Shown here: positions 9,551 through 43,295 of the stretch, in pieces | Position numbering within the stretch: the stretch's first letter is position 1 | How the letters are laid out: each line of letters begins with the position of its first letter | IMG/VR virus record: IMGVR_UViG_3300033121_001553 | Location: 64,001-128,000 of that record | From: a virus | Taxonomy: Duplodnaviria > Caudoviricetes | Length of the DNA stretch: 64,000 nucleotides | Direction: 5' to 3' (one strand) | The notes under the pieces: generated by a model | The model's database searches: none | Told to the model about the DNA's origin: nothing | Seen by the model: only the letters and a program-made list of their open reading frames with translations | Made by a program: the position numbers and the translations under genes

Positions 9551-12331
9551 TCACTTTACAGCACTTTTAAGATCTTCATTAACACGCTGAATTGCTCTAA
9601 CGAACGACGTGTAACGTGGATACGCATCATTGAAACTTAGTTTCCACGACGTTTCGAATTTTCCAGACGCTATCGTATGGCTCAATGACGTAACGATGTA
9701 CATGTTGTCAAGCGTGGTACCAGTTCCAAAGTCGAAAAAGAATTTTTGTGCAAATGAGACAAGCGGACATCCAACTGTTACCATCGTAAGTTCACCTGGA
9801 TACACAAGCATGGGCACACCGCCAACACCAGAACCGTTTGGCTCAACAGGGTTGCTACGTCCTTGAGACTTCATATTACCAGCTGCAATAAGCTGATTCT
9901 GCTGCGACGATACGCTTATCGACTTGATCATTGAATTATTCGTTCCCCACGTGATAGTTGGAACAATTTGCGTTATTGCGCGTTTTATGACGTCAATGTT
10001 ACCATCGACGTGAACGTACTCTGCGCCGTCGCCACCAGTCTTTGTTTCGATCTTGACATCAAAGCCGCCAGACGAGAGTTTCTCGCTTAGTTCTTTTATC
10101 TTTGCGATGAATGGTCCACGTTGCTCCTTCAACGCTCCATCAGACACGAAAGCATCTGGCTTAAGCGTAAGCTGCTTCAGTATGTGGTCTACGGGACCGT
10201 ACGGTTGCATCTGCTTATCGAATACATGCAACCGTAGTATCTTACTTCCCTCGTATACTGTCGATCCGCTATCAGCGATGCGCATTCTTGGAAGCGTTTC
10301 AAGATGCATGTGAACAACTGGAAACGCAAACGTGCCACCATACTGCTTCAGTTTTTCATCAAGTGCGCTTGTAAAGGCTTTGGTATCTTTATACTTTTTC
10401 TTATCAACAGCTGGTTCACGTTGTTTAGCAGTACGTGGCATGTACAGTTCTGCAAGACCGTATCCATCGCTTCTGTAGTCTTTGAGAAAGTTGTCGCTTA
10501 CGAATGTAAGAAAGTCGTATATCGACATATCAGACGCTCCGCTATCTTTAAGCCTCTCAGAGAACAGTTCTTTGAATAGTCCAACGTCTATCGGAAAGTC
10601 ACCGATATTTCTTGAGCTTGCCGCACCGCACGTAGAACCGAACGTGTAGAAGAACAGCTGCGCTTCTTCGATACCATCGTACTGCGATACAGCAGGACCA
10701 AGAACAAAAACGGACATCACTTGAGAAAGAGAAACGTACTTCAAAGGTTTTCCAGCAACGTTTTGTTCGTAGAATTTCTCGAATCCTGGCGCGTCTGCCG
10801 GCGACTTAACGTAAGCGTCTTTATTAAGCAAATCTAGTTTGTTACTGATACGTCTCTTTATATGCTGAGCATGTCTTTCCTTCAGCGAAAGAACTTTTTT
10901 CTTGTCTTTGTCGTCAGGGTCTAGGCTGAATGCTTCTGTGATTTTATCAGATAGCTGTTTTGCAGCTTCATTTATTTGGCCTGTCGCAGGTTGCCCTTTA
11001 CCATTATCAGACTTCCCATCAGGGCTCTTACCAGCAAGCACATTCTTCAATTTCTGTACAGCTTCTTGTAGCTTATTGCCTTCCAGATCAGATGGCAGCT
11101 CTCCGCGAGATGCTGCTTCAAGCAGCTGAGATGCGCGCAAGTCTGGCATGAAGTCAAGCTTCATTTGCGTACGCACCTCCTTTGAAAGCTCAGTTATCTC
11201 CTCAAGCACATTTTGAAGATTAGTAGTGCCACCAACTTTTATTGCATGAGTCTCCGTTGCGCCTTTCATCGCAAGATCCAGAGAAATCTTTATCTGACCG
11301 GCTGGATCCAATGCATAAGTTGCTGATTTTACGCCATAAATCTCACGGCATTTTAGTGTATTCATGAATTCACCATAAACGCTTGAGTTGACATCGTTGT
11401 CAGGATGCTGCCAACCGTACTCTATATCGATGCTTGTTTTCGCGTAAAAGTCTGGCTTGATCAAATCTGCAATCTCGGTCAATCTTGAACGATCATGCAG
11501 TATGATTTCAAGCTTTGCAGTTTTGTACGCAAGAGGACCAGTCATCGACACAACATTAACGCTAAAATTTTCTATAGACATCAGCGGACGTGTCTTGTCA
11601 AGAACAGGAACGTATCTGTTCGACGGTACGTAAACCTCGTCAAGGTTCAACAGCGTTTGCGGTGATGTGAATAGATCCATAGCTGTCTGCGTGACATCGA
11701 TCGCTTTTTTTCCAATCAACGCTTGCTTTTTTACGCCAGCAAGCAATTTATCAGCCGACTTTTGATCGACAGGCGCGCCGCCAGAGAAAAATTTGATAAG
11801 TGACGTCCCGACAGCACGACCCATGTGATCGAGCGGAGCGCGTGGCAGCTGCATTCGTACATCTATGTACGGCATACACCTAGCGAGTTCTATCGACGGT
11901 ATCGCTTTCATGAACGTTGTTATCTTGTTTACGTTTCTAACGTTCATTGATAGATACGGTACATCACATTTCACAACGCAAGATTTTCTAGATAGCGGTA
12001 CATTAATACCAATAGCTACGGCAGTTTCATATACCTCAGTTCCAAGTCCTTGCACTATTCCAACAGAAGTATAACAACGTAGATACTTCTTGAGATTTTT
12101 ACCATCATCAGATCTAGCAAATTCTTCTATCTGACTCTTTATGTCGTCTGAACCTGCGACGCCGTCTGAACGTGAATGAACCAATAGCTCAAGCAAGAAT
12201 TCAAGCGCACCGTCGCTACGATTTTTTGACGGATCTGCATTGAGCTGTGTTACAGCGGGATCGTCTACAAACTGCGTTAGATCTTTTGGTCTAAGATAGT
12301 TGTAGAATCTTTCTAGAGAGCCAGCAGGCAT
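9551..12331 (-). CDS. Large virion protein, probably baseplate hub-like
   Basis: 926 aa, downstream of the LysM/gp53-like gene. IEYGW motif and C-terminal GCP...YIVTSLSHTIASGKFETSWKL resemble hub/GPD-type proteins. Position-based call. Confidence 0.55.
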   Translation of the reverse strand: MPAGSLERFYNYLRPKDLTQFVDDPAVTQLNADPSKNRSDGALEFLLELLVHSRSDGVAGSDDIKSQIEEFARSDDGKNLKKYLRCYTSVGIVQGLGTEVYETAVAIGINVPLSRKSCVVKCDVPYLSMNVRNVNKITTFMKAIPSIELARCMPYIDVRMQLPRAPLDHMGRAVGTSLIKFFSGGAPVDQKSADKLLAGVKKQALIGKKAIDVTQTAMDLFTSPQTLLNLDEVYVPSNRYVPVLDKTRPLMSIENFSVNVVSMTGPLAYKTAKLEIILHDRSRLTEIADLIKPDFYAKTSIDIEYGWQHPDNDVNSSVYGEFMNTLKCREIYGVKSATYALDPAGQIKISLDLAMKGATETHAIKVGGTTNLQNVLEEITELSKEVRTQMKLDFMPDLRASQLLEAASRGELPSDLEGNKLQEAVQKLKNVLAGKSPDGKSDNGKGQPATGQINEAAKQLSDKITEAFSLDPDDKDKKKVLSLKERHAQHIKRRISNKLDLLNKDAYVKSPADAPGFEKFYEQNVAGKPLKYVSLSQVMSVFVLGPAVSQYDGIEEAQLFFYTFGSTCGAASSRNIGDFPIDVGLFKELFSERLKDSGASDMSIYDFLTFVSDNFLKDYRSDGYGLAELYMPRTAKQREPAVDKKKYKDTKAFTSALDEKLKQYGGTFAFPVVHMHLETLPRMRIADSGSTVYEGSKILRLHVFDKQMQPYGPVDHILKQLTLKPDAFVSDGALKEQRGPFIAKIKELSEKLSSGGFDVKIETKTGGDGAEYVHVDGNIDVIKRAITQIVPTITWGTNNSMIKSISVSSQQNQLIAAGNMKSQGRSNPVEPNGSGVGGVPMLVYPGELTMVTVGCPLVSFAQKFFFDFGTGTTLDNMYIVTSLSHTIASGKFETSWKLSFNDAYPRYTSFVRAIQRVNEDLKSAVK

Positions 12332-32937: not shown

Positions 32938-34830
32938 TTACTTGGCGTAAACGATTACAGGTTCAGTCCTTACGCTACCGTTTCCCATGTACGAGTTACC
33001 GCAGCTCATCTGCTCAGTGCATACATGCTTGAAGCCAACATCAACTGCAACTGCATTGAATACATCAACGTATTTGTTTGAAACGTTAATAACAAACTTC
33101 GAGTTCTGCTTCAAACAAACGTATGCATGTTTTACTGTTGGTTTTACGTAACTGTCTACCCATTCCTGATATGTTTTGTATTCTTTCCATGCTTGTCCCG
33201 ACTCATCATAATATTTCTCAGTATCATAATATGGCGGCGATGTGAATACAAAGTCAACTGTGCATTCGTCAGGCGCCATCATCTCAGATCCGGCTGAGTT
33301 TACGATGATATCATAACCATACGATACGATATCTGACGCTAGGTTAGACAAGTCAGCTCTGGTACGTGATGATGGCTCGTTGCATATATAAGTTCCGCCG
33401 CTAAAGGACGATACAAAACCGAGCATTCTAGCACCGAACCCAGCAGAAGGATCCCAGACAGTTGGACACTCAGCTGTACAATATTTGCTGTAGATATACT
33501 TTGCGTAAGCGGGTCTAAACCAAGATACAGCTTTCTTTTGAACACGCAAACCGCGTCTAATAGATCTAAATGTTATGTCAATGCCTTGAGCTAGCCTTGT
33601 ACGTAGTACATTCGACAGTACGGCATCATTATAAAATGCGTTGCGTGGCCCATCGTTCGTATCCCAGTACGAACGAAATATCGACTGAAGATATGCTGAA
33701 CCTGCGTGCGAGTATTTTCTTGAGTTAGCAAGCTCAGCGATAGCATCAGCAAAACTTGAAGAACGAACTGGGTATATCCAACCGTAAGTCTCTGCGTATT
33801 GCTTGAGATAATTCAGCAGACATCTTACTGTCTGCTGCTGAACTTCGACAACTCTGCTGGCTCGCGTTATTATCGTTTCATCGTCAATAGACGGCAATCC
33901 ATTCTTGATAATCTTACCATCAATAACGGCTGTATGAGCACATGCTAGAAGTGATTCGTAGTCTCTGCATGAACACCAGTCTGCGTCTTCTGCTATTTTG
34001 ATGTATGAACTACGCGTTAGAACAGCTGAACGTAGTTTACGTAGATCTGAAGTCATTGTAGCGAGTTGTTGATCAGACCAGTCAGATGATCTGTCTAGTC
34101 CGTGCCAGTACGTTCCGTCAAATTCGACGTAGGTTCCACAGCTAAGTTGCATGTCGTAGCATGCCGTCATTCCATCTATTGATTTCCACACTTGCGTTTT
34201 TGCGTCATGATCAAATGTTTTTACGTGTTCAATGAACTTCTGCTCAGCAAAAGATGACTTCGATACTTCTCTCGTCATGTTCGATGACGAAATTTTTGAT
34301 CGCATCTCATCAGTAAATATTTTGCTCATAAGCTCAGAACGTTGCTCAGCCCATACACGTTTTCTAATACTGCTTAGTTTCTCATGCATTCCGTCAGCAT
34401 TCAACGAAGCAGATACTGCTGCTGCATGTCTACGGCTAACATCAGGATTACTAAATGCATCTTTTACGCTCAACGCTATTTTTCGTTTGATTTCATCACC
34501 ATGTTCAGCGTACGCAGCTCTGATCGCTGCATTTCTTTTTTTTACAGCATCTTGTGATGGCGAACATCTTGTTGCTGTTGACTTATTATTATGACCAGTT
34601 ATATATCTGTTGTAGCAGTACTTTGTTTTGTGCCACAATGTTAGCTGACCGCAGCCGCATAGACACTCTGGCTGACGTAGAGAAAAATATTTCTCAACAT
34701 ATCCCTTGATACCCTCAATGTCAGAATGACATTTTGAGATGTGAATACCAAGCTGCTTACGTGTCGCTATAACGGCATCGCATGCTGCACAACGATGCGT
34801 AAAGCTAATGTTACCGTAGCTATCTACCAT
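32938..34830 (-). CDS. Fusion of Zn-finger/Vsr-like (DUF559-type) endonuclease and alpha-class DNA methyltransferase
   Basis: CAAC..HISKCH, CLCGCG and YD..YVEFDGTYWHG, then motif I VWDPSAGFGARMLG and motif IV FTSPPY. Confidence 0.75.
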   Translation of the reverse strand: MVDSYGNISFTHRCAACDAVIATRKQLGIHISKCHSDIEGIKGYVEKYFSLRQPECLCGCGQLTLWHKTKYCYNRYITGHNNKSTATRCSPSQDAVKKRNAAIRAAYAEHGDEIKRKIALSVKDAFSNPDVSRRHAAAVSASLNADGMHEKLSSIRKRVWAEQRSELMSKIFTDEMRSKISSSNMTREVSKSSFAEQKFIEHVKTFDHDAKTQVWKSIDGMTACYDMQLSCGTYVEFDGTYWHGLDRSSDWSDQQLATMTSDLRKLRSAVLTRSSYIKIAEDADWCSCRDYESLLACAHTAVIDGKIIKNGLPSIDDETIITRASRVVEVQQQTVRCLLNYLKQYAETYGWIYPVRSSSFADAIAELANSRKYSHAGSAYLQSIFRSYWDTNDGPRNAFYNDAVLSNVLRTRLAQGIDITFRSIRRGLRVQKKAVSWFRPAYAKYIYSKYCTAECPTVWDPSAGFGARMLGFVSSFSGGTYICNEPSSRTRADLSNLASDIVSYGYDIIVNSAGSEMMAPDECTVDFVFTSPPYYDTEKYYDESGQAWKEYKTYQEWVDSYVKPTVKHAYVCLKQNSKFVINVSNKYVDVFNAVAVDVGFKHVCTEQMSCGNSYMGNGSVRTEPVIVYAK

Positions 34831-34837
34831 TTTGCAT

Positions 34838-34866
34838 ATTTTAACAATTTCTTATGATTAGTTCAA
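34838..34866 (-). promoter_or_regulatory. Sigma70-type promoter TTGAAC-17-TAAAAT with extended -10 TG, 7 nt before ATG
   Basis: Minus strand TTGAAC taatcataagaaatTGt TAAAAT atgcaaa ATG. Confidence 0.7.
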
Positions 34867-34871
34867 ATGCA

Positions 34872-34901
34872 GAAAGGGAGGCGATAATTCGCCTCCCTTT
34901 C
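34872..34901 (-). terminator. Terminator hairpin after the major capsid gene
   Basis: Perfect 13-bp stem gaaagggaggcga/tcgcctccctttc with a 4-nt loop. Confidence 0.8.
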
Positions 34902-34923
34902 AGTCGATTACTTATCTAATCGA

Positions 34924-36813
34924 TAAGATGATGTTCATATTCAGAACCGTTACAGTTCCGAAGTAGTCAGAACGGATCATCTTCTTGCCGTACCGCGTCA
35001 TCACGCCCTTGGTTGGGGTGAAGTCCTGCGGATTGTAGATTGTCTGCGTCATGATGAGTGGCACATATGGCGCGTAGACATATCCCGTCTCAAGATAGTT
35101 ACCGCCCTTGTAGCCAACAAGGATGCGGTTCCTTGGGAAATAAGGATCCTTATAGACGGTAAATCTATTGTTCAGTGTACCGATTGCCTCTGCGCCCATC
35201 TGGAATGGAGAAGCTACCTGACCGTTGCCGTCAATCGACAGCTTGGCCTTGTACGCGATTGCGCTCTCGATAATCGTGCAAACATCTGGCGATGTCACGA
35301 TAAAGTTTGCGCTACCACGCAGGGTCTTACGGTGGATGGTGTTCGCAACGTCGTTGATTGTCTCAACAAGCGTCTGCGCCCACTCCATCGTGTTGCCCGT
35401 GAACTGTGGTCCGATCGACAAGCTCGTTGAGAGATCTCTCTGAGCACCGGTCAGCTTGTTCACGAACACGCCTGGAGCACGGCTCCAGTACAGGTTTGCA
35501 CCATTTGCCTGCGTTAGCAGATCCTGGAGGATCTCGCGGTCAATCTCAAGTGCGATCTGCTCCGACAGTACCTGCGTCAGCTCGACCTCTGCGTCGATGT
35601 TGTGGTACGCGTTCAGATCCTGCGCGAGCTCTGGAGACCAGCGAGCGCGCAGCTTGCGTGATGTTGCAGTGATTGCAATCGACTCAACCTTGATGTTGAC
35701 CTCTGCGATCACTGGGCTTGATGACGAGCCAAAGTCAGACTCGTAGCTTGGCAGCGTCAGAGTCGAACCTGTCGATGAATCGACCTGGAGCTTGTCGCTT
35801 ACGACACCAGACATCTTCATCGAGCCGCCGAGCACAGGTACTGAGCCTGCATTCGAGAGTCTCACGACGAACTGGATGTGGTCACCATTCAGCGCGTCTG
35901 GCGTAAACGTGGTGCCGTTGAAGTTACCACGCTTGTTCAGCTTGCGCAGGTTAAGCACACCAGTACCTGCCTGGAAGCTCTCGCCCCATGCCGTTGCACC
36001 GTTTGCCGTCGAGAACGCTGTGATTGCGAGCTGATCAACCTGGAGCAAGTCGACGTTTGCAATCGCGCTTGTGATCTGCGCAGTTGGAACGTGCACGAAG
36101 CACACGTCAAACGTACCAGCCTCGATACCAGCCTCAACGTCTGGATCGAAGTTGCAGAAGCGAGCGTTCGAGCCAGAGAAGTCAGTCGATGATGCGACTG
36201 TACCAGCTGATGTCCATGCGCCGTTCACTCCCGTGAATGCACCGACCTTCGTCTCAGCCGAAGCCGAAACAGAGTTGCTACCGCTGTGAACCTTCGAGAA
36301 GCCTGAGCCAACGAGGTCGTACATACCACCAGCCGCAAGCGAGCCCGACTGAACTCCCTTACCTGGCGGGTTGTTGTACAGCGACTGTCCAACGGTGTAA
36401 GTCTCATTTGCTGATGATGATGACAAGCTCACGCCTGCATCGCCACCAACGTTTGAGCCGTAGCCATAGTCGATGTAGAACACAAGACCAGATGGCAGCG
36501 ACATTGGCTGAACCGAAACGAGCTCGTTGGCAACGAGGCCACCGAAAACTCTACGTACGATTGGGAACGCAATGTTCGCGAAACCTGCGATCTGACCCGA
36601 CGTTGTAACGTTACCGCCACCTGTCGAGAGCGCGTTTGCCTCCTTTATGAGGCCTACTGCCTGGTTCTCAAGCAGACGGGCCATATGGCTACGGCGCTGT
36701 CCCTCGAGACCCTTGAGCAAGCCCGTCTTCGTCCACTTCTTGACGATGCGTGCTTCCTCTGCACTTCTATTGGGATCCTGGATCCCTTCCATAATATCCT
36801 GATATGTCAACAT
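34924..36813 (-). CDS. Major capsid protein (gp23-like)
   Basis: MARLLENQ, FPIVRRVF, VSVQPMSLPSGLVFY, RKLRARWSPELAQDLNAYH, GYVYAPYVPL, GVMTRYG. Own ATG 36813 with GGAGA SD. Ends TTA 34924-34926 (standard code: TAA 34912). The ORF track fuses it to the scaffold. Confidence 0.95.
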
Positions 36814-36843
36814 TTTTACTTTCCAATCTCCTAAGTTGTGAGC

Positions 36844-38295
36844 TAACTTGATACCAGCCAAAATGCTCCAGCGATCTAGCTCAGCAGACTCTGACAGAGT
36901 CTCCTTCGATGCTGTTGCTGCTCCGCTTTTCACCGTGCGTGATGACGACCCGAGCAGCTGACCGCCGCTCTTGCCTTCTGTCATCGGCTTCTTGTCAGAC
37001 ATTGCCGTTGAAACTGCTGTCTCGTAAACGAGGCGTAGCTCCTTCAACGAGCTTGCTTCATTGACACGCTTGCACGCTGATGCTTTCTGTGCCTTGGTCA
37101 GATTGTCATTCGTGACGATCTTATTCGCGACCTTTGTCTTGGCTAGCATGAGATTCGTCTCACGCAGTTGATTGTAAAGTTGACGTACTTTACGCTCTGC
37201 GACGATAGAGGTATTAAGCTCTCTCATACGGCGTCGCGCCGGTGATGCTGACTCACGCATACGAAGCGCTCTGCGGAAGCGCGACTCGCGTGTTAGCATC
37301 TCGTCATCTTCTTCGGCCTCTTCAGCCATTGGCTCTTCGCCCTCAAGACCCTCAGTCGTAACGTCAGCGTCAAGCCATGGATCACCCATGTCTTCTCCAC
37401 CGCCGAAGTCATCAACTGGCATCTTCTTTGACTCTGCAATTCTTGCACGTACTCTCATAATCTCACGACGAAGCATACGCTCATCAACCTCAACGATTGG
37501 ATCAGCGTCTTTTCTGCCTCTGCTTTCGCCCTGCTGCGTTGGCTTCTTCTCTTCTTCGCCAGCAGCTGCACCGCCAAGAATCGAGTCTAGTTCTGCGTCT
37601 GATGTATCATCACCAGAGCCGTCGGAAGGAGCAGCAGCATCAACATCAGCCTGTTCCTCGTCGCCCTCAGGTGCGCCACCTTCTTCATCTGCAACAATTG
37701 ATACACCGAGCGCTCCAAGATCAAGATCATCTGGCAGCGCCTCGCCGCTAAGCTCGAGTGTAACTTTACCTTCCGACATACGCTTCTTCATTTTTATTTC
37801 CTCTGATGTTTCCTTATTCTTGATCTTTGAGAATGCATCTTCCAGCGCCTCTATTAGAGGCTTTTTCTCCGCTTCACTTGAAGAACTCTCTTTTACGCTT
37901 CTATACATATCGTCGAGACGAGCGACTGCACGCTCACTCATACGAAAAATTGCGCCTACACGCTTTATTTTTGCTGTACGCTTTACGAACTCATCAACAT
38001 TTTCGCAAAGCGACGTAACTTCTGCCTTAAGCTTGTTGAATGATTCATTCTTTGAATCATCATCCGTTAGCACATTTTCTTCGTCTTTATCATCTTCAGT
38101 TGACTCGACGAATTCTTTTTCCATATCATCGCCGCACTCAGTGACGTCAGCTTCATCCGACTCCAACAGAGTCTTTTCAATGAAACTACGTATAGCTGGC
38201 AACGCCGACTCTACGATCTCTTTCTTAGCGCTGTCTTCTGCAAGCTCACGCAATTTTTGCACGTCTGCAAGCGCTTCTTTATAAAGATTCGACAT
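36844..38295 (-). CDS. Prohead scaffold/core protein (gp22-like)
   Basis: Acidic coiled-coil directly upstream of the capsid gene with many L/I-x-E sites. Ends LDRWSILAGIK then TTA 36844-36846, with no standard stop. Confidence 0.8.
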
Positions 38296-38299
38296 TTTT

Positions 38300-38914
38300 T
38301 AAGTCCTGATTTGTAACGTTGAATTTAACGTATTCTGTGCCGTCAGGCGTGCCTGGACGTGAGCCCTTCTTCAACGCGCGTGGAGGAGCGGCAATCGCGT
38401 CTGTGATCTGAGCGCTAGTGCTACTTGGGTTCGCAGTGTTCTCGGAACGTGGCTTTGCGTGCAGCTCATTACGTAGCTCTTCTGGAGTTGCGGGCTGCGA
38501 CAGTGGATCAACACCAACTGTTGGCGAACCAAGATTTGGTGACCACGCTGTTGATGTGCTACCGACGCCACCCGCTGCTTCATCAAGCGCATTAATGTCT
38601 GGAGCTGCGCCATAACCAGGCTTGTACTCAGACTCAAAGTTCCAGTAGGCCTTCGCATCATCAACATCGCCCTCTGTTACAAGTAGCTTGCTGATCATTG
38701 CATCGCCCTGACCGTTAATGTACTTTGGTGGCAGCTGACCTTTGTGAATAGGCGAAGCAGTGTATAGTCCTTTTAGTACATTTTCATTTGATAGTGACTT
38801 TGGTGGACCAGAGAATGACTCTTCGTACGCTTTAGTGTCAGGAGTCGTTACAGTCGAACCGTATCGATTCCCGTCTATCTGCGTTTTTGGATCTGGATCT
38901 ATTGGTTTTGGCAT
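38300..38914 (-). CDS. Hypothetical Pro-rich protein in head module
   Basis: Ends TTA 38300-38302, 4 nt before the scaffold ATG (standard code: TAA 38279, inside the scaffold gene). Confidence 0.65.
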
Positions 38915-39236: not shown

Positions 39237-39659
39237 TTAAACGCCTTTCTTGTCTGAAAATGCGAGTGCAGACCACAAATCTGCTTTTCCAGCGAGCATG
39301 TCTGCGAATGGATCATTTTCTTCAGATGCTTGTTGCTGCATACTTTCTTGGGCCATCGTTCTGTGCTGAACATTTGCCAGCGGTCCCTCAGCGTTTAGTT
39401 GTTCTTGCAACGTTGTTTTTGCAGTATCGGCCAATATGCTGCTAAGCGTCGGATCTTTTGTTAGCAAGCTTATTGCATTTTTTGCTGCGCTGTCTGCCTT
39501 CTGCTTCGCTTGCATTTGCTGCGCAGGTTGAACCTGTCTGTAACCTGTAGAAGGAACAACACGTTTTTTTACTTCTGTAACTGTTGAAACATCAGAACCA
39601 TCTAGCAAAATTTCTACAAGACATTCTTTGATCAGCTTCTTTAGTTCACCACGTGTCAT
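39237..39659 (-). CDS. Hypothetical protein in head module
   Basis: MTRGELKKLIKECLVEIL. ATGA overlap with the protease gene. Confidence 0.7.
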   Translation of the reverse strand: MTRGELKKLIKECLVEILLDGSDVSTVTEVKKRVVPSTGYRQVQPAQQMQAKQKADSAAKNAISLLTKDPTLSSILADTAKTTLQEQLNAEGPLANVQHRTMAQESMQQQASEENDPFADMLAGKADLWSALAFSDKKGV

Positions 39660-40282
39660 GCCGCTACTCCCTTGTGAGCGTTCAACGCATCTATAACAAA
39701 TCCAGCAGTTCGATAAATTCTATCAGACTTTGTAAATGTATTTCTCATCTCAACAAGATCAACGCGTTTACCTTCTTGCAAAAATGCTCCTGGCGTCGAC
39801 GGCTCAGATACGATATCCCAGCAAATGAGCTGGAAGTCATCTTGCACAACTTGCTTATCGCCTTCTTTTTTTGTCGTTCCAACACCACGAGATGATATAC
39901 CAAGTTTTACTCCACCAGCAAGCAGCTCTTGTAGTATTTTTCCGCTTGGTGTATTGAGTATCTCAACAACGCCGTGCACGATTCCGTTGTTAAACGTTGC
40001 TTCTCTGATTATGTGAGAAACGTTCTTTAGATTTACCACGCTCGACTCTGGATGATCGCATTCACCGCATGCTCGATTCTCATTAATAAATTTTTGATAG
40101 TTTCGTACTTCTCTTTCAAGTACAGAGTACGGATACACTCTACCATTTTGATTGAGCGTATCTGCCCGTTGCAGTATGCCACGTAGCAGTATCTTACCAC
40201 CCTTACTAATTGTTTCGTTAATCTCACTCGGAGTTAGCTCCAGAGGCTCCCAGCTTGTGATCAGTTTTTTATATTCGCTCAT
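39656..40282 (-). CDS. Prohead protease (gp21-like)
   Basis: NQNGRVYP, GECDHP, NVSH, GISSRGVG, WDIVSEPSTPGA. Confidence 0.93.
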   Translation of the reverse strand: MSEYKKLITSWEPLELTPSEINETISKGGKILLRGILQRADTLNQNGRVYPYSVLEREVRNYQKFINENRACGECDHPESSVVNLKNVSHIIREATFNNGIVHGVVEILNTPSGKILQELLAGGVKLGISSRGVGTTKKEGDKQVVQDDFQLICWDIVSEPSTPGAFLQEGKRVDLVEMRNTFTKSDRIYRTAGFVIDALNAHKGVAA

Positions 40283-40286
40283 GGTA

Positions 40287-41144
40287 TAACTTGCTCTCTA
40301 TCTCATTTATCAATTTTTCATAAAGCAAATGTTCGATCACCGCTGAGTCTTCTATCTCGTTGATCGTTTTGCCTCTCGCGAATGTTTCATTTTTTACGAT
40401 ATCAAGTCTTTCGTTTGTCATGATATCTCTGGGATTGTGAGATACGTAATTGTCTATCGCGTTGACAAGTCTATCTCGCGTTTCTGCGAAAAGTTTTTTT
40501 ACGTCTTCTTTGTTACCGTTCACGCAGCTCAAAGCATAAGTACGCACCAAACTCCGCTGTGCGTCTGTCAGTTCACCGTCGTATCGCTCGTTGATCTTGT
40601 TTGTCATTACCTTGATCAGCATACGCAGCGTGCCAGGCGACTCTGCTGGAATCGTTACTGTCTTTTCATCATCACTAGATCTCGTAAGGTGCTCACGCAG
40701 CGTATTCTCGTACTGCACAACCCTACCGAAGTCAGCTGCTGCTGGATTTCTCCAGTCATTTATAAGTGACTGTATCGTCGCATAAAGCTTGTAGTTCTCA
40801 AACTGCTGATCCCAGAAATATGGAAAATTTAGATGAGATATCGACTTAATAAGTGCTGTCTTCTCTTGCTCAAGCAGCGTAATATCATAGTTTGCAGATG
40901 CTTTTCGAGCTTCTGTTAGAACGGCTGCTGCAGCAACTTCTGACATTTTTTCATTCACGAGTGCCTTGAAGAGCCGAAATTCTCTGTAGATTTCAGTTCC
41001 TGGCTTGTAATGACGCTTCAAAATTTTAAGAGCACGACGTGCAACATCGTTGTTATTCTCAACGACAGACTTTGATATAACTCTTACCAGCAGCTCATAC
41101 GTTAGTCCAACGTTTCGCTTTTTATTGTGCTTTGCCATTCTCAT
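40287..41144 (-). CDS. Hypothetical protein between portal and protease
   Basis: Helical ORF starting (MR)MAKHNKKRNVGLTYELL. Ends TTA 40287-40289, 4 nt before the protease ATG (standard code: TAA 40269). Confidence 0.75.
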
Positions 41145-41198: not shown

Positions 41199-43295
41199 TC
41201 ACTCGTCTGTAGCATCAACGTTTACGTCTTCAGACAGAAGAACATTTTCAGCGCTTGCATCAGCTGTTTCTATCTGCCAGTTATGACGCTCACAAAACTT
41301 TTGTAGCATCTTATACATATCGCTTCCAAACGCAGGCTTGTAATATCCCTCTGCAAGTGGTTTCTTATCAACACCTGCAGTCGAAAGACTATTGAGCCAT
41401 TTGATATCCGATGGATCATCTTCTGTTGCTGTTTTAACAGTTGGCGTTGGAGTTGTTATCTTTTTCTTGTACCGACGTCTTCTTATTGCATTTCCGCGCC
41501 ATTTTCTTTCAGCTTTTGACTGTGCTTCTGAGAATCTTCTTATTTTGCTTGACGCAGATATCGGTCTATCGAGTTCCTTAAGCTGAAATTGTGGTGGTGC
41601 GAAGTCATCAGCGTCAGTGAGTATATTTTCTTCGTCTTCATCATCTTCAACGCTTGCATTAACTTCTCCGCCTGGTTCTCCACCTGCGGGTGGCGCTCCA
41701 CCGCCACCCTCACCGCCAGCTGGTGGAGCGCCACCGCCAAGATCTCCGCCGCCAAGCCCACCTAGCTCTTCACCGCCACCGCCTCCCGTAGGATTCGTAA
41801 AGTCGAATCCACCACCGCCACCTCCGCCGCCGCCGCCCATACCGCCGTCAGCTGTTTCAAGTCCAACGCCGATTTTTTCAAGTTCTGCATCTCGTGCACG
41901 ATCTTTCTTTCTACCCTCTTCTATGGCTGCTATCTGATCTTCTGTTAGCGAAAGTATATTTGTTCTTACAAAGTCACGATCAAGCATGCCTTCTGGTGGG
42001 CTACCAGCTATCTCAAACTTTGCGCGCCATAGCTCAAGCTTCTGCTGCTCAGCAACTGTTGATGGATTCGACAAACGAAGAGCAAAGTTGATCAGATCTT
42101 CGCCAGAAAATCCATGCACGAATAGATGCATAATCGCAAGCTTGTTGAGCTCTGATAGTATCGTCTTCTGTATAACGTTTATTGTACGAGCAAATCTAAT
42201 GTCGACTTGCGCAAGCGTTGACTTGCTTCCAAGTAGCTCTTCGTATCCCAAGTAAGCGCTTGGTACACCCAACGCTGTTACAAGTTTTCTTCTTATGTAT
42301 TGAACGTCTTCGACGGCAGCGACATTTTGACCACCAGCAAGCGTGTCTATCTTCGTTGCAGACGTCGAACCTCTAACGGGCATGATGTAGTCTTCTTCTA
42401 CGCTCATAGCTCCATAACGCAAGTCGACTCTACCAGTCGCTCTATCAACGACAGATGCCGTACGAAAATTGTTCTTTACGCTTTCAATGTGTGCTGGTAT
42501 AGCTTCGTTTGGCATATTACCAACGTCGATGTAGATCACACGACGCTCGGGCGCTCGTACGATACGATAGACAAGCATCGCGTCTTCGATCAGTATGAGC
42601 TGTCTCCACACTCTTCTTGCTCCGTCTAGAACTGATGAACCGTACGGCAAGTAGTTATCATTTCCGAGCAGACGCATGTGAACAATCTCCCAGTTTTCTA
42701 GCACACGTGCACCAAGCGTATTCCATCTGAACCTGACGGCTGCTGGATCTGCTGGATCGAAATTTTCTTCGCGATCGATTTCATTAACTGGTATCGGTAT
42801 CAGGCCTTGCACACCGTACTCTGGTGATACGTCTACATACGCAAACCAGTCACCGTTCTTGCACAAGTTACGTGCCCAAGGCCTCATGTTGAACTCAACG
42901 TTCAATACGTTGTAAAAAAGATCTTCCAAGATCTCTTGTATCTTCGGATTATCGCTATAGATGTGAAATGATCGTCCTTTATCGTCCTGAGCGCATGACT
43001 CATCTGCGTACAAGTTAAGCGCTGTAGCGATCTCAGGCATCTGCTCCATCTCGATAAAGTCTTGGAATCTCATCAGTCGTTCTGATGAGTTGAACGAGTT
43101 GGCTGTTAGCGCAGTGTATGTTGGTGATATTGTTTTTGAAAACAACTGTGCTGCAGATGAATACACAGAATTGCCAGACGCTACAACCGTGTCTTGTGAC
43201 TTTACTTTTCTTCTTACGACAGGCCCGCTCTTAAAAAGACGTGTGAGTTTTTTGAAGAAACTGTCGTACTGATTATCCTGTGTTGCCATCAGCAT
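41199..43295 (-). CDS. Portal protein (gp20-like) with Gly-rich C-terminal extension
   Basis: PEIATALNLYADE, LIEDAMLVYRIVRAPERRVIYIDVGN, EEDYIMPVRG, IDTLAGG, ALGVP. Confidence 0.94.
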   Translation of the reverse strand: MLMATQDNQYDSFFKKLTRLFKSGPVVRRKVKSQDTVVASGNSVYSSAAQLFSKTISPTYTALTANSFNSSERLMRFQDFIEMEQMPEIATALNLYADESCAQDDKGRSFHIYSDNPKIQEILEDLFYNVLNVEFNMRPWARNLCKNGDWFAYVDVSPEYGVQGLIPIPVNEIDREENFDPADPAAVRFRWNTLGARVLENWEIVHMRLLGNDNYLPYGSSVLDGARRVWRQLILIEDAMLVYRIVRAPERRVIYIDVGNMPNEAIPAHIESVKNNFRTASVVDRATGRVDLRYGAMSVEEDYIMPVRGSTSATKIDTLAGGQNVAAVEDVQYIRRKLVTALGVPSAYLGYEELLGSKSTLAQVDIRFARTINVIQKTILSELNKLAIMHLFVHGFSGEDLINFALRLSNPSTVAEQQKLELWRAKFEIAGSPPEGMLDRDFVRTNILSLTEDQIAAIEEGRKKDRARDAELEKIGVGLETADGGMGGGGGGGGGGFDFTNPTGGGGGEELGGLGGGDLGGGAPPAGGEGGGGAPPAGGEPGGEVNASVEDDEDEENILTDADDFAPPQFQLKELDRPISASSKIRRFSEAQSKAERKWRGNAIRRRRYKKKITTPTPTVKTATEDDPSDIKWLNSLSTAGVDKKPLAEGYYKPAFGSDMYKMLQKFCERHNWQIETADASAENVLLSEDVNVDATDE
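41680..41850 (-). repeat. Low-complexity Gly-rich repeat in the portal tail
   Basis: Poly-Gly run plus two tandem GGAPPAGGE units. Confidence 0.8.

Follow-up and report, generated by a model that had tools for sequence, protein, structure and literature searches.

A single open reading frame of 1127 codons raises the question of whether it encodes one protein or two. The frame lies on the minus strand (34912..38295) of a 64,000-nucleotide stretch of phage DNA, here called the window, which covers positions 64001-128000 of the 186,819-bp virus record IMGVR_UViG_3300033121_001553 (G000; 43% G+C). Read with translation table 11, the frame joins a scaffold-like protein to a Gp23-family major capsid protein. 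It is very probable, from comparison with relatives and from codon use across the record, that the frame comprises two separate genes and that scaffold and capsid each end on TTA. The same comparisons support the view that in this phage lineage UUA marks the end of translation, not leucine, beside UGA and UAA.

An earlier note on the window had described the 1127-aa standard-code frame and had pointed to two in-frame TTAs, a GGAGA and an ATG opening a gp23-like protein at the junction. The frame is confirmed and the letters are as the note gave them: GGT ATC AAG TTA (36846-36844) GCT CAC AAC TTA (36834-36832) GGA GAT TGG AAA GTA AAA ATG (36813-36811) TTG ACA. The features of the locus are as follows.

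36844..38295, minus strand: scaffold-like gene (gp22 position), 483 aa, ending ...LDRWSILAGIK and then TTA; named from position, composition and C-terminal motif.
36844..36846, minus strand: TTA as putative scaffold terminator; relatives have TGA, TAA or TAG at the same position.
36814..36843, minus strand: intergenic spacer of 30 nt, with the second in-frame TTA (36832-36834), GGAGA (36827-36831) and GGAAAG (36819-36824).
34924..36813, minus strand: major capsid gene, Gp23 family, 629 aa, from ATG 36813-36811 to ...VLNMNII and then TTA (34926-34924).
34912..34914, minus strand: TAA, the first standard stop in frame, three codons past the capsid TTA (TTA-SIR-TAA).
34873..34900, minus strand: terminator-like G+C-rich hairpin of 12 bp, 3' of the capsid gene.

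The capsid protein matches Pfam PF07068 (E 2.9e-79) and PHROG 138 (E 1.8e-76). The 483-aa protein gave no match in Pfam or PHROG, and we call it scaffold-like from its position, its acidic composition (pI 4.7, with 109 Asp and Glu residues, or 23%) and its conserved C-terminal motif. TTA is absent from the leucine codons of both genes (0/40 in the scaffold, 0/49 in the capsid), and after the scaffold TTA the nearest in-frame standard stop is 643 codons on. Within the spacer, GGAAAG stands 5 nt before the capsid ATG, and no terminator-like site was found there on the minus strand. The hairpin 3' of the capsid gene lies in a region (34835-34930) with a minimum free energy of -33.8 kcal/mol (z -7.4).

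At the junction, the evidence comes from relatives. A capsid scan gave 80 loci in viral contigs, at 53-68% identity, and a scan of metagenomes gave 80 more. In each of the 81 viral-contig relatives checked, a standard stop in frame precedes the capsid start by 3-57 codons; in the window alone this region is open, for 495 codons. The position of this stop is itself conserved. In ~75 relatives the scaffold ends in RWxxLAG[IL], followed by one to six residues (usually K or xK) and then TAA, TGA or TAG, and the equivalent in the window is RWSILAGI-K-TTA (36844-36846). The capsid ends in the same manner, with ...(D/N)(M/L)N(I/V)I directly before a standard stop in ~78 relatives and ...NMNII-TTA in the window. 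At its other end, the capsid N-terminus of the window aligns with the relatives' start, and the relatives' spacers, of about 12-64 nt, also carry GGAG-type sites.

The earlier note had taken the junction for an ordinary intergenic spacer behind a scaffold gene that lacks a standard stop. This reading is supported, since TTA occupies the place where ~75 relatives stop and none of the 81 is fused. The note had proposed comparing TTA 36844-36846 with the closest relatives, and had said that a conserved, stop-free fusion in relatives using the standard code would count against its reading; the comparison finds a standard stop where the note looked for it, and no such fusion. Among 5.8 billion proteins searched, the window's own frame was the sole capsid relative that reached 1102 aa, and no fused family appeared. 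The junction, which the note offered as a test of TTA termination, is indeed the clearest single-locus evidence for it in the window.

Relatives of similar G+C content use TTA as a leucine codon at 10-25 per 1000 codons, and in several of them TTA encodes a conserved leucine within the same capsid tail. Such free use implies that the leucine meaning of TTA is ancestral. Six relatives with low in-frame TTA (L025, L032, L064, L098, L103 and L104) were considered as further TTA-stop genomes and rejected, as they have mid-gene TTAs or are too short or too G+C-rich for a judgement.

The closest relative, G001 (IMG/VR 3300033066_001998; 22,952 bp, 47.5% G+C), is present in three JGI samples, has a capsid 68% identical to that of the window and displays the same TTA pattern. 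Its ortholog of the scaffold-like protein, 28% identical over the full length, ends RWSKLAGL-PAK-TTA-RDT-TAA. The TAA, four codons past the TTA, lies in the spacer, and the open junction, from which the note had imagined a minor fusion by leaky readthrough, is therefore not conserved. The G001 capsid ends ...MNII-TTA, where table 11 would add 35 unconserved residues, and its 668-aa ortholog of a 630-aa gene of the window also ends on TTA, where table 11 would run 301 codons into the next gene. At matching C-termini of orthologs, one of the two genomes may have TTA where the other has TAA or TGA, and the exchange goes both ways.

The behaviour of TTA elsewhere in the DNA is that of a stop codon. 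In 36 long open reading frames of the window (19,934 codons), TTA occurs in frame 17 times, where positional base composition predicts ~272; the other two frames have 491 and 201. The corresponding three-frame counts for standard stops are 11/430/476 for TAA and 23/474/928 for TGA. Of the 17 in-frame TTAs, eleven precede a standard stop by 1-28 codons, four are no more than 27 codons from the earliest possible start, and the remaining two are those of the junction. The depletion holds on both strands across 186.8 kb, with no TTA inside gene bodies, and UUG and UCA remain sense codons (319 and 456 in frame in the window).

When TTA is added to the stops and genes of at least 80 aa are called, the resulting four-stop model places 190 genes on 95% of the DNA of the record. 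The genes end on TGA (90), TTA (61), TAA (34) and TAG (5). The gap to the next gene is as short after TTA ends as after TAA ends, four TTATG overlaps being included, and no extended sequence context was found that sets terminal TTAs apart. The median and maximum distances, in codons, to the next in-frame standard stop are 6 and 643 after TTA, 5 and 383 after TAA, and 8 and 805 after TGA. The 643-codon open run is thus the ordinary tail of a distribution, calling for no special construction, because similar maxima follow TAA and TGA. Once translation has truly ended, chance would decide where the next standard stop falls, and the open in-frame junction would be a by-product.

The rare TAG (5/190 gene ends) is found in frame only in leaders or tails and interrupts no gene. 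No TAG or TGA was seen inside conserved genes as a sign of code 15 or code 4 recoding, and TGA is the commonest stop. Genes ending on TTA occur in every gene class examined. They include the small genes of an early-looking region, so that stopping at UUA seems to be present from the start of infection.

How might UUA be turned into a stop? The tRNA genes may offer one part of an answer. The phage encodes 34 tRNAs in all, 22 of them beyond the right end of G000 (L192:3601-5788, L211:10597-10999). Its leucine anticodons are UAG, GAG and CAA, with UAA absent, a set that reads five leucine codons and leaves out UUA alone; U34 as well as C34 tRNAs are encoded for each of the Lys, Gln, Glu and Arg-AGR boxes. 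With the phage's leucine tRNAs reading only CUN and UUG, UUA would have no decoder in the infected cell. Release would then probably fall to a factor of the release factor 2 (RF2) type that tolerates U at codon position 2. That such a factor acts, supplied by the host or by an unrecognised phage gene, is a substantial though still tentative possibility. Relaxation of RF2 at position 2 is suggested because it fits the stop set UGA/UAA/UUA, the near absence of UAG, an amber suppressor tRNA and the organelle precedent described below.

This suppressor tRNA is 72 nt long, with anticodon CUA, A73 and a short variable loop, and its gene follows by ~15 nt or less that of a PTH2-family peptidyl-tRNA hydrolase (G000 153,917-154,308, L169:1118-1509; E 7.8e-12), which itself ends on TTA. 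The three leucine tRNAs are also unusual, being 74-76 nt long and lacking the long variable arm that tRNA-Leu of bacteria usually has; the Tyr and Ser tRNAs keep theirs.

Several observations weigh against UUA as a terminator in this lineage. The absence of a phage tRNA-Leu(UAA) is only suggestive, as Asp and Cys tRNAs are missing too. No RF-1 domain was found in G000. No release factor came up when 143 of the 144 genes modelled outside the window were scanned with Pfam (the window's other genes were not scanned singly), and no member of the release-factor family was recorded among the genes called on 66 kb of flanking contigs. The same Pfam scan found an IF-1 homologue, the PTH2 hydrolase, RNA ligase, GroEL, DnaE and ClpP. 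At the junction, the GGAGA Shine-Dalgarno sequence is 13 nt before the capsid ATG, a longer spacing than usual. Finally, the TTA-stop pattern was found in only two lineages among ~160 capsid relatives.

That no release-factor gene was found in the roughly 253 kb of genome seen would also suit a different mechanism, in which UUA is an unassigned, 'hungry' codon. Ribosomes would stall there, and the peptide would be freed by rescue factors or by drop-off and peptidyl-tRNA hydrolase; scaffold and capsid would still be separate genes. A tRNA set without a UUA reader fits this mechanism, as does the avoidance of UUA by Streptomyces phages where the host tRNA is limiting (PMC10732093). The phage's own hydrolase gene, next to that of tRNA(CUA), is a further point for it, although PTH2-like genes are common to many phages. 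However, TTA ends both of the most abundant head proteins, so that release there would have to be efficient, and long peptidyl-tRNA drop-off is inefficient. Nor are backup stops enriched near terminal TTA relative to TAA or TGA. Stalling and rescue at UUA is less likely than release by an RF2-type factor, yet a serious alternative to it.

If, instead, TTA were read as leucine, the locus would encode a real 1127-aa scaffold-capsid fusion, like capsids with an N-terminal scaffolding domain. In favour of this, table 11 leaves the frame open through the spacer, and fused scaffold domains do exist in other phage families, as in the delta domain of HK97. Yet such a fusion would have no fused counterpart among the 81 relatives checked, would carry TTA exactly at the conserved stop position and would retain, within the protein, a capsid start and ribosome-binding region that are conserved in their own right. 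It would also leave the exclusion of TTA from every gene body of the record, and the TAA in the spacer of G001, to be accounted for. A genuine fusion is highly improbable.

The locus recurs in other assemblies. In JGI and Logan assemblies the exact 1127-aa frame is found on 19 contigs, and the four contigs read, one of them from a more diverged strain, have identical junction DNA. The stretch occurs in runs of nine studies, of which the labelled ones are of wastewater, sludge, bioreactor or aquaculture material. In a metatranscriptome library, a contig of 1419 nt covers the junction and has the TTA unchanged, though this library may contain DNA. An error of sequencing or assembly, or editing of UUA to UAA in the RNA, was considered only because TTA and TAA differ by one base, and is scarcely credible in view of an effect confined to one reading frame on both strands, the identical junction DNA in independent assemblies, the same pattern in a diverged relative from other samples and the TTA kept in the metatranscriptome contig, where DNA is possible. 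Evidence of transcription from two RNA libraries (X1 and X3) was rejected, as the stretch lies there in contigs of 19-57 kb and looks like DNA carry-over. A joint at 35959/36662 in X1 was set aside, as the contig that shows it is short, unlike the stretch and derived from another organism, and nothing was inferred from the X19 contig, which stops at 36841.

UUA stops are documented in organelles, where they act via an altered RF2 with a Ser204-type change (PMC12574857). They are used in labyrinthulean/Thraustochytrium mitochondria (NCBI table 23), in peDinoflagellate plastids (UUA and UCA) and in the mitochondria of Marsupiomonadales and Pseudoscourfieldia (UUA and UUG) (PMC12574857). The phage is like them in that UUA has gone from gene bodies, sits at the stop positions of homologues and is used beside standard stops. 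The phage stop set of UGA, UAA and UUA, with almost no UAG, also fits the RF2-based route of PMC12574857. Here, however, the genome is that of a bacteriophage with double-stranded DNA and some 190 genes or more, and UUG and UCA stay sense.

Recoding of stop codons in phages is known from the crAss-like and Lak phages, in which TAG or TGA is read as an amino acid with the help of phage suppressor tRNAs (PMC7886860, PMC8346664). These share with the present phage a non-standard code and a phage-encoded tRNA(CUA), but here the direction is from sense to stop, and the change extends to every gene class examined instead of to late genes only. The Streptomyces phages, which avoid UUA in connection with the bldA tRNA (PMC10732093), are similar in having UUA-free gene bodies, for which a missing or limiting tRNA for UUA is a plausible cause. 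Their hosts are of high G+C content, so that TTA is rare anyway, and TTA as a regular terminator is not described for them. In contrast, the phage described here has a 43% G+C genome and relatives that use TTA freely, and it ends a third of its genes with TTA.

In the literature that could be searched, only mitochondria and, since 2025, plastids are reported to have reassigned a sense codon to stop (PMC12574857), with no case in phages, and the phage recoding reported there is only from stop to sense. A phage that ends a third of its genes with UUA, including those for the two most abundant head proteins, would extend this kind of code change to bacterial translation. The change could also be imposed by the phage on its host. 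Termination at UUA would truncate the UUA-containing mRNAs of the host or of competitors, while the phage's own UUA-free genes would be read normally. The kit for such a take-over would consist of the 34 tRNAs (serving all leucine codons but UUA), the amber suppressor, the IF-1 homologue and the PTH2 hydrolase. A take-over of this kind is doubtful; if true, neither sense-to-stop recoding outside organelles nor its use as a weapon would have a precedent.

There are practical consequences as well. Standard gene callers fuse or extend genes of this kind, and the 1127-aa product stands in public protein collections. The junction offers a clean experimental read-out, as separate genes would give products of ~53 and ~67 kDa, and a fusion one of ~120 kDa.

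The record itself is a fragment (ends of G000; L184, L187, L192-L211). Contigs of the same phage, 99.2% identical over 14.4 kb, lengthen it by 3.8 kb at the left end and by 62.5 kb at the right. As both sides are joined by one JGI contig of 171 kb, the genome is estimated at ~274 kb, of which ~253 kb (~92%) is seen and 20.6 kb, between positions 38,880 and about 59,500 of the JGI contig Ga0490007_000001, unseen. Upstream of one 181-aa gene, at a distance of about 50-190 bases, six independent contigs break off, suggesting that a repeat or a physical end lies there. The terminal 169-aa protein gave no matches when looked up, and a comparison of the phage GroEL with genome contigs returned a single weak and partial match and so no lead to the host. 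The IF-1 homologue (a translation initiation factor; PF01176, E 1.2e-19) is encoded somewhere within G000 1-35,000. Besides GroEL, RNA ligase, ClpP and DnaE, the phage has genes for many sugar-modifying enzymes and for two phospholipases of the patatin-like type. In L201, at about 9930-10077, where blocks of small genes switch to divergent orientations, there is a short tandem duplication (copies of 87 nt, with an offset of 61 nt), which may be an origin or early-promoter region.

The genes around the scaffold-capsid locus form a head module, in which TTA is again found at gene ends.

32938-34830, minus strand: gene of 630 aa whose product has a DNA methylase domain (PF01555, E 2e-6); its neighbours are the capsid gene and a gp13-like neck gene.
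38300..38914, minus strand: 204-aa head-module gene ending on TTA, seven codons before TAA; the G001 ortholog likewise ends on TTA.
39656..40282, minus strand: prohead core protease, Peptidase_S77 (PF03420, E 4.8e-21), gp21-like.
40287..41144, minus strand: 285-aa head-module gene ending on TTA; the G001 ortholog ends on TGA.
41199..43295, minus strand: portal, T4 gp20-like, 698 aa, from a precomputed Pfam match (PF07230) on the gene in identical contigs.

T4-like phages encode the scaffold gp22 and the capsid gp23 as separate genes. The T4 order gp20-gp21-gp22-gp23 is matched here by portal, S77 protease, acidic scaffold-like protein and Gp23 capsid, as separate genes, and this order places the 483-aa protein in the scaffold position. 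Differences from the T4 module are the length of the scaffold-like protein (483 aa) and its lack of a sequence-family match, the 629-aa capsid and the presence of three small genes between protease and scaffold.

Two minor features of related head modules may be added. The portal of G001 (L181:1956-5600) contains an intein (PF14890) between two Portal_T4 segments, and that of the window is without one. In several relatives a second protein, encoded downstream of the capsid gene, ends (E)RWxxLAG[IL]-x-K, like the scaffold (L008:8773, L015:4495, L063:4944, L075:10208, L033:13456), and the shared tail may serve for targeting to, or binding in, the capsid interior.

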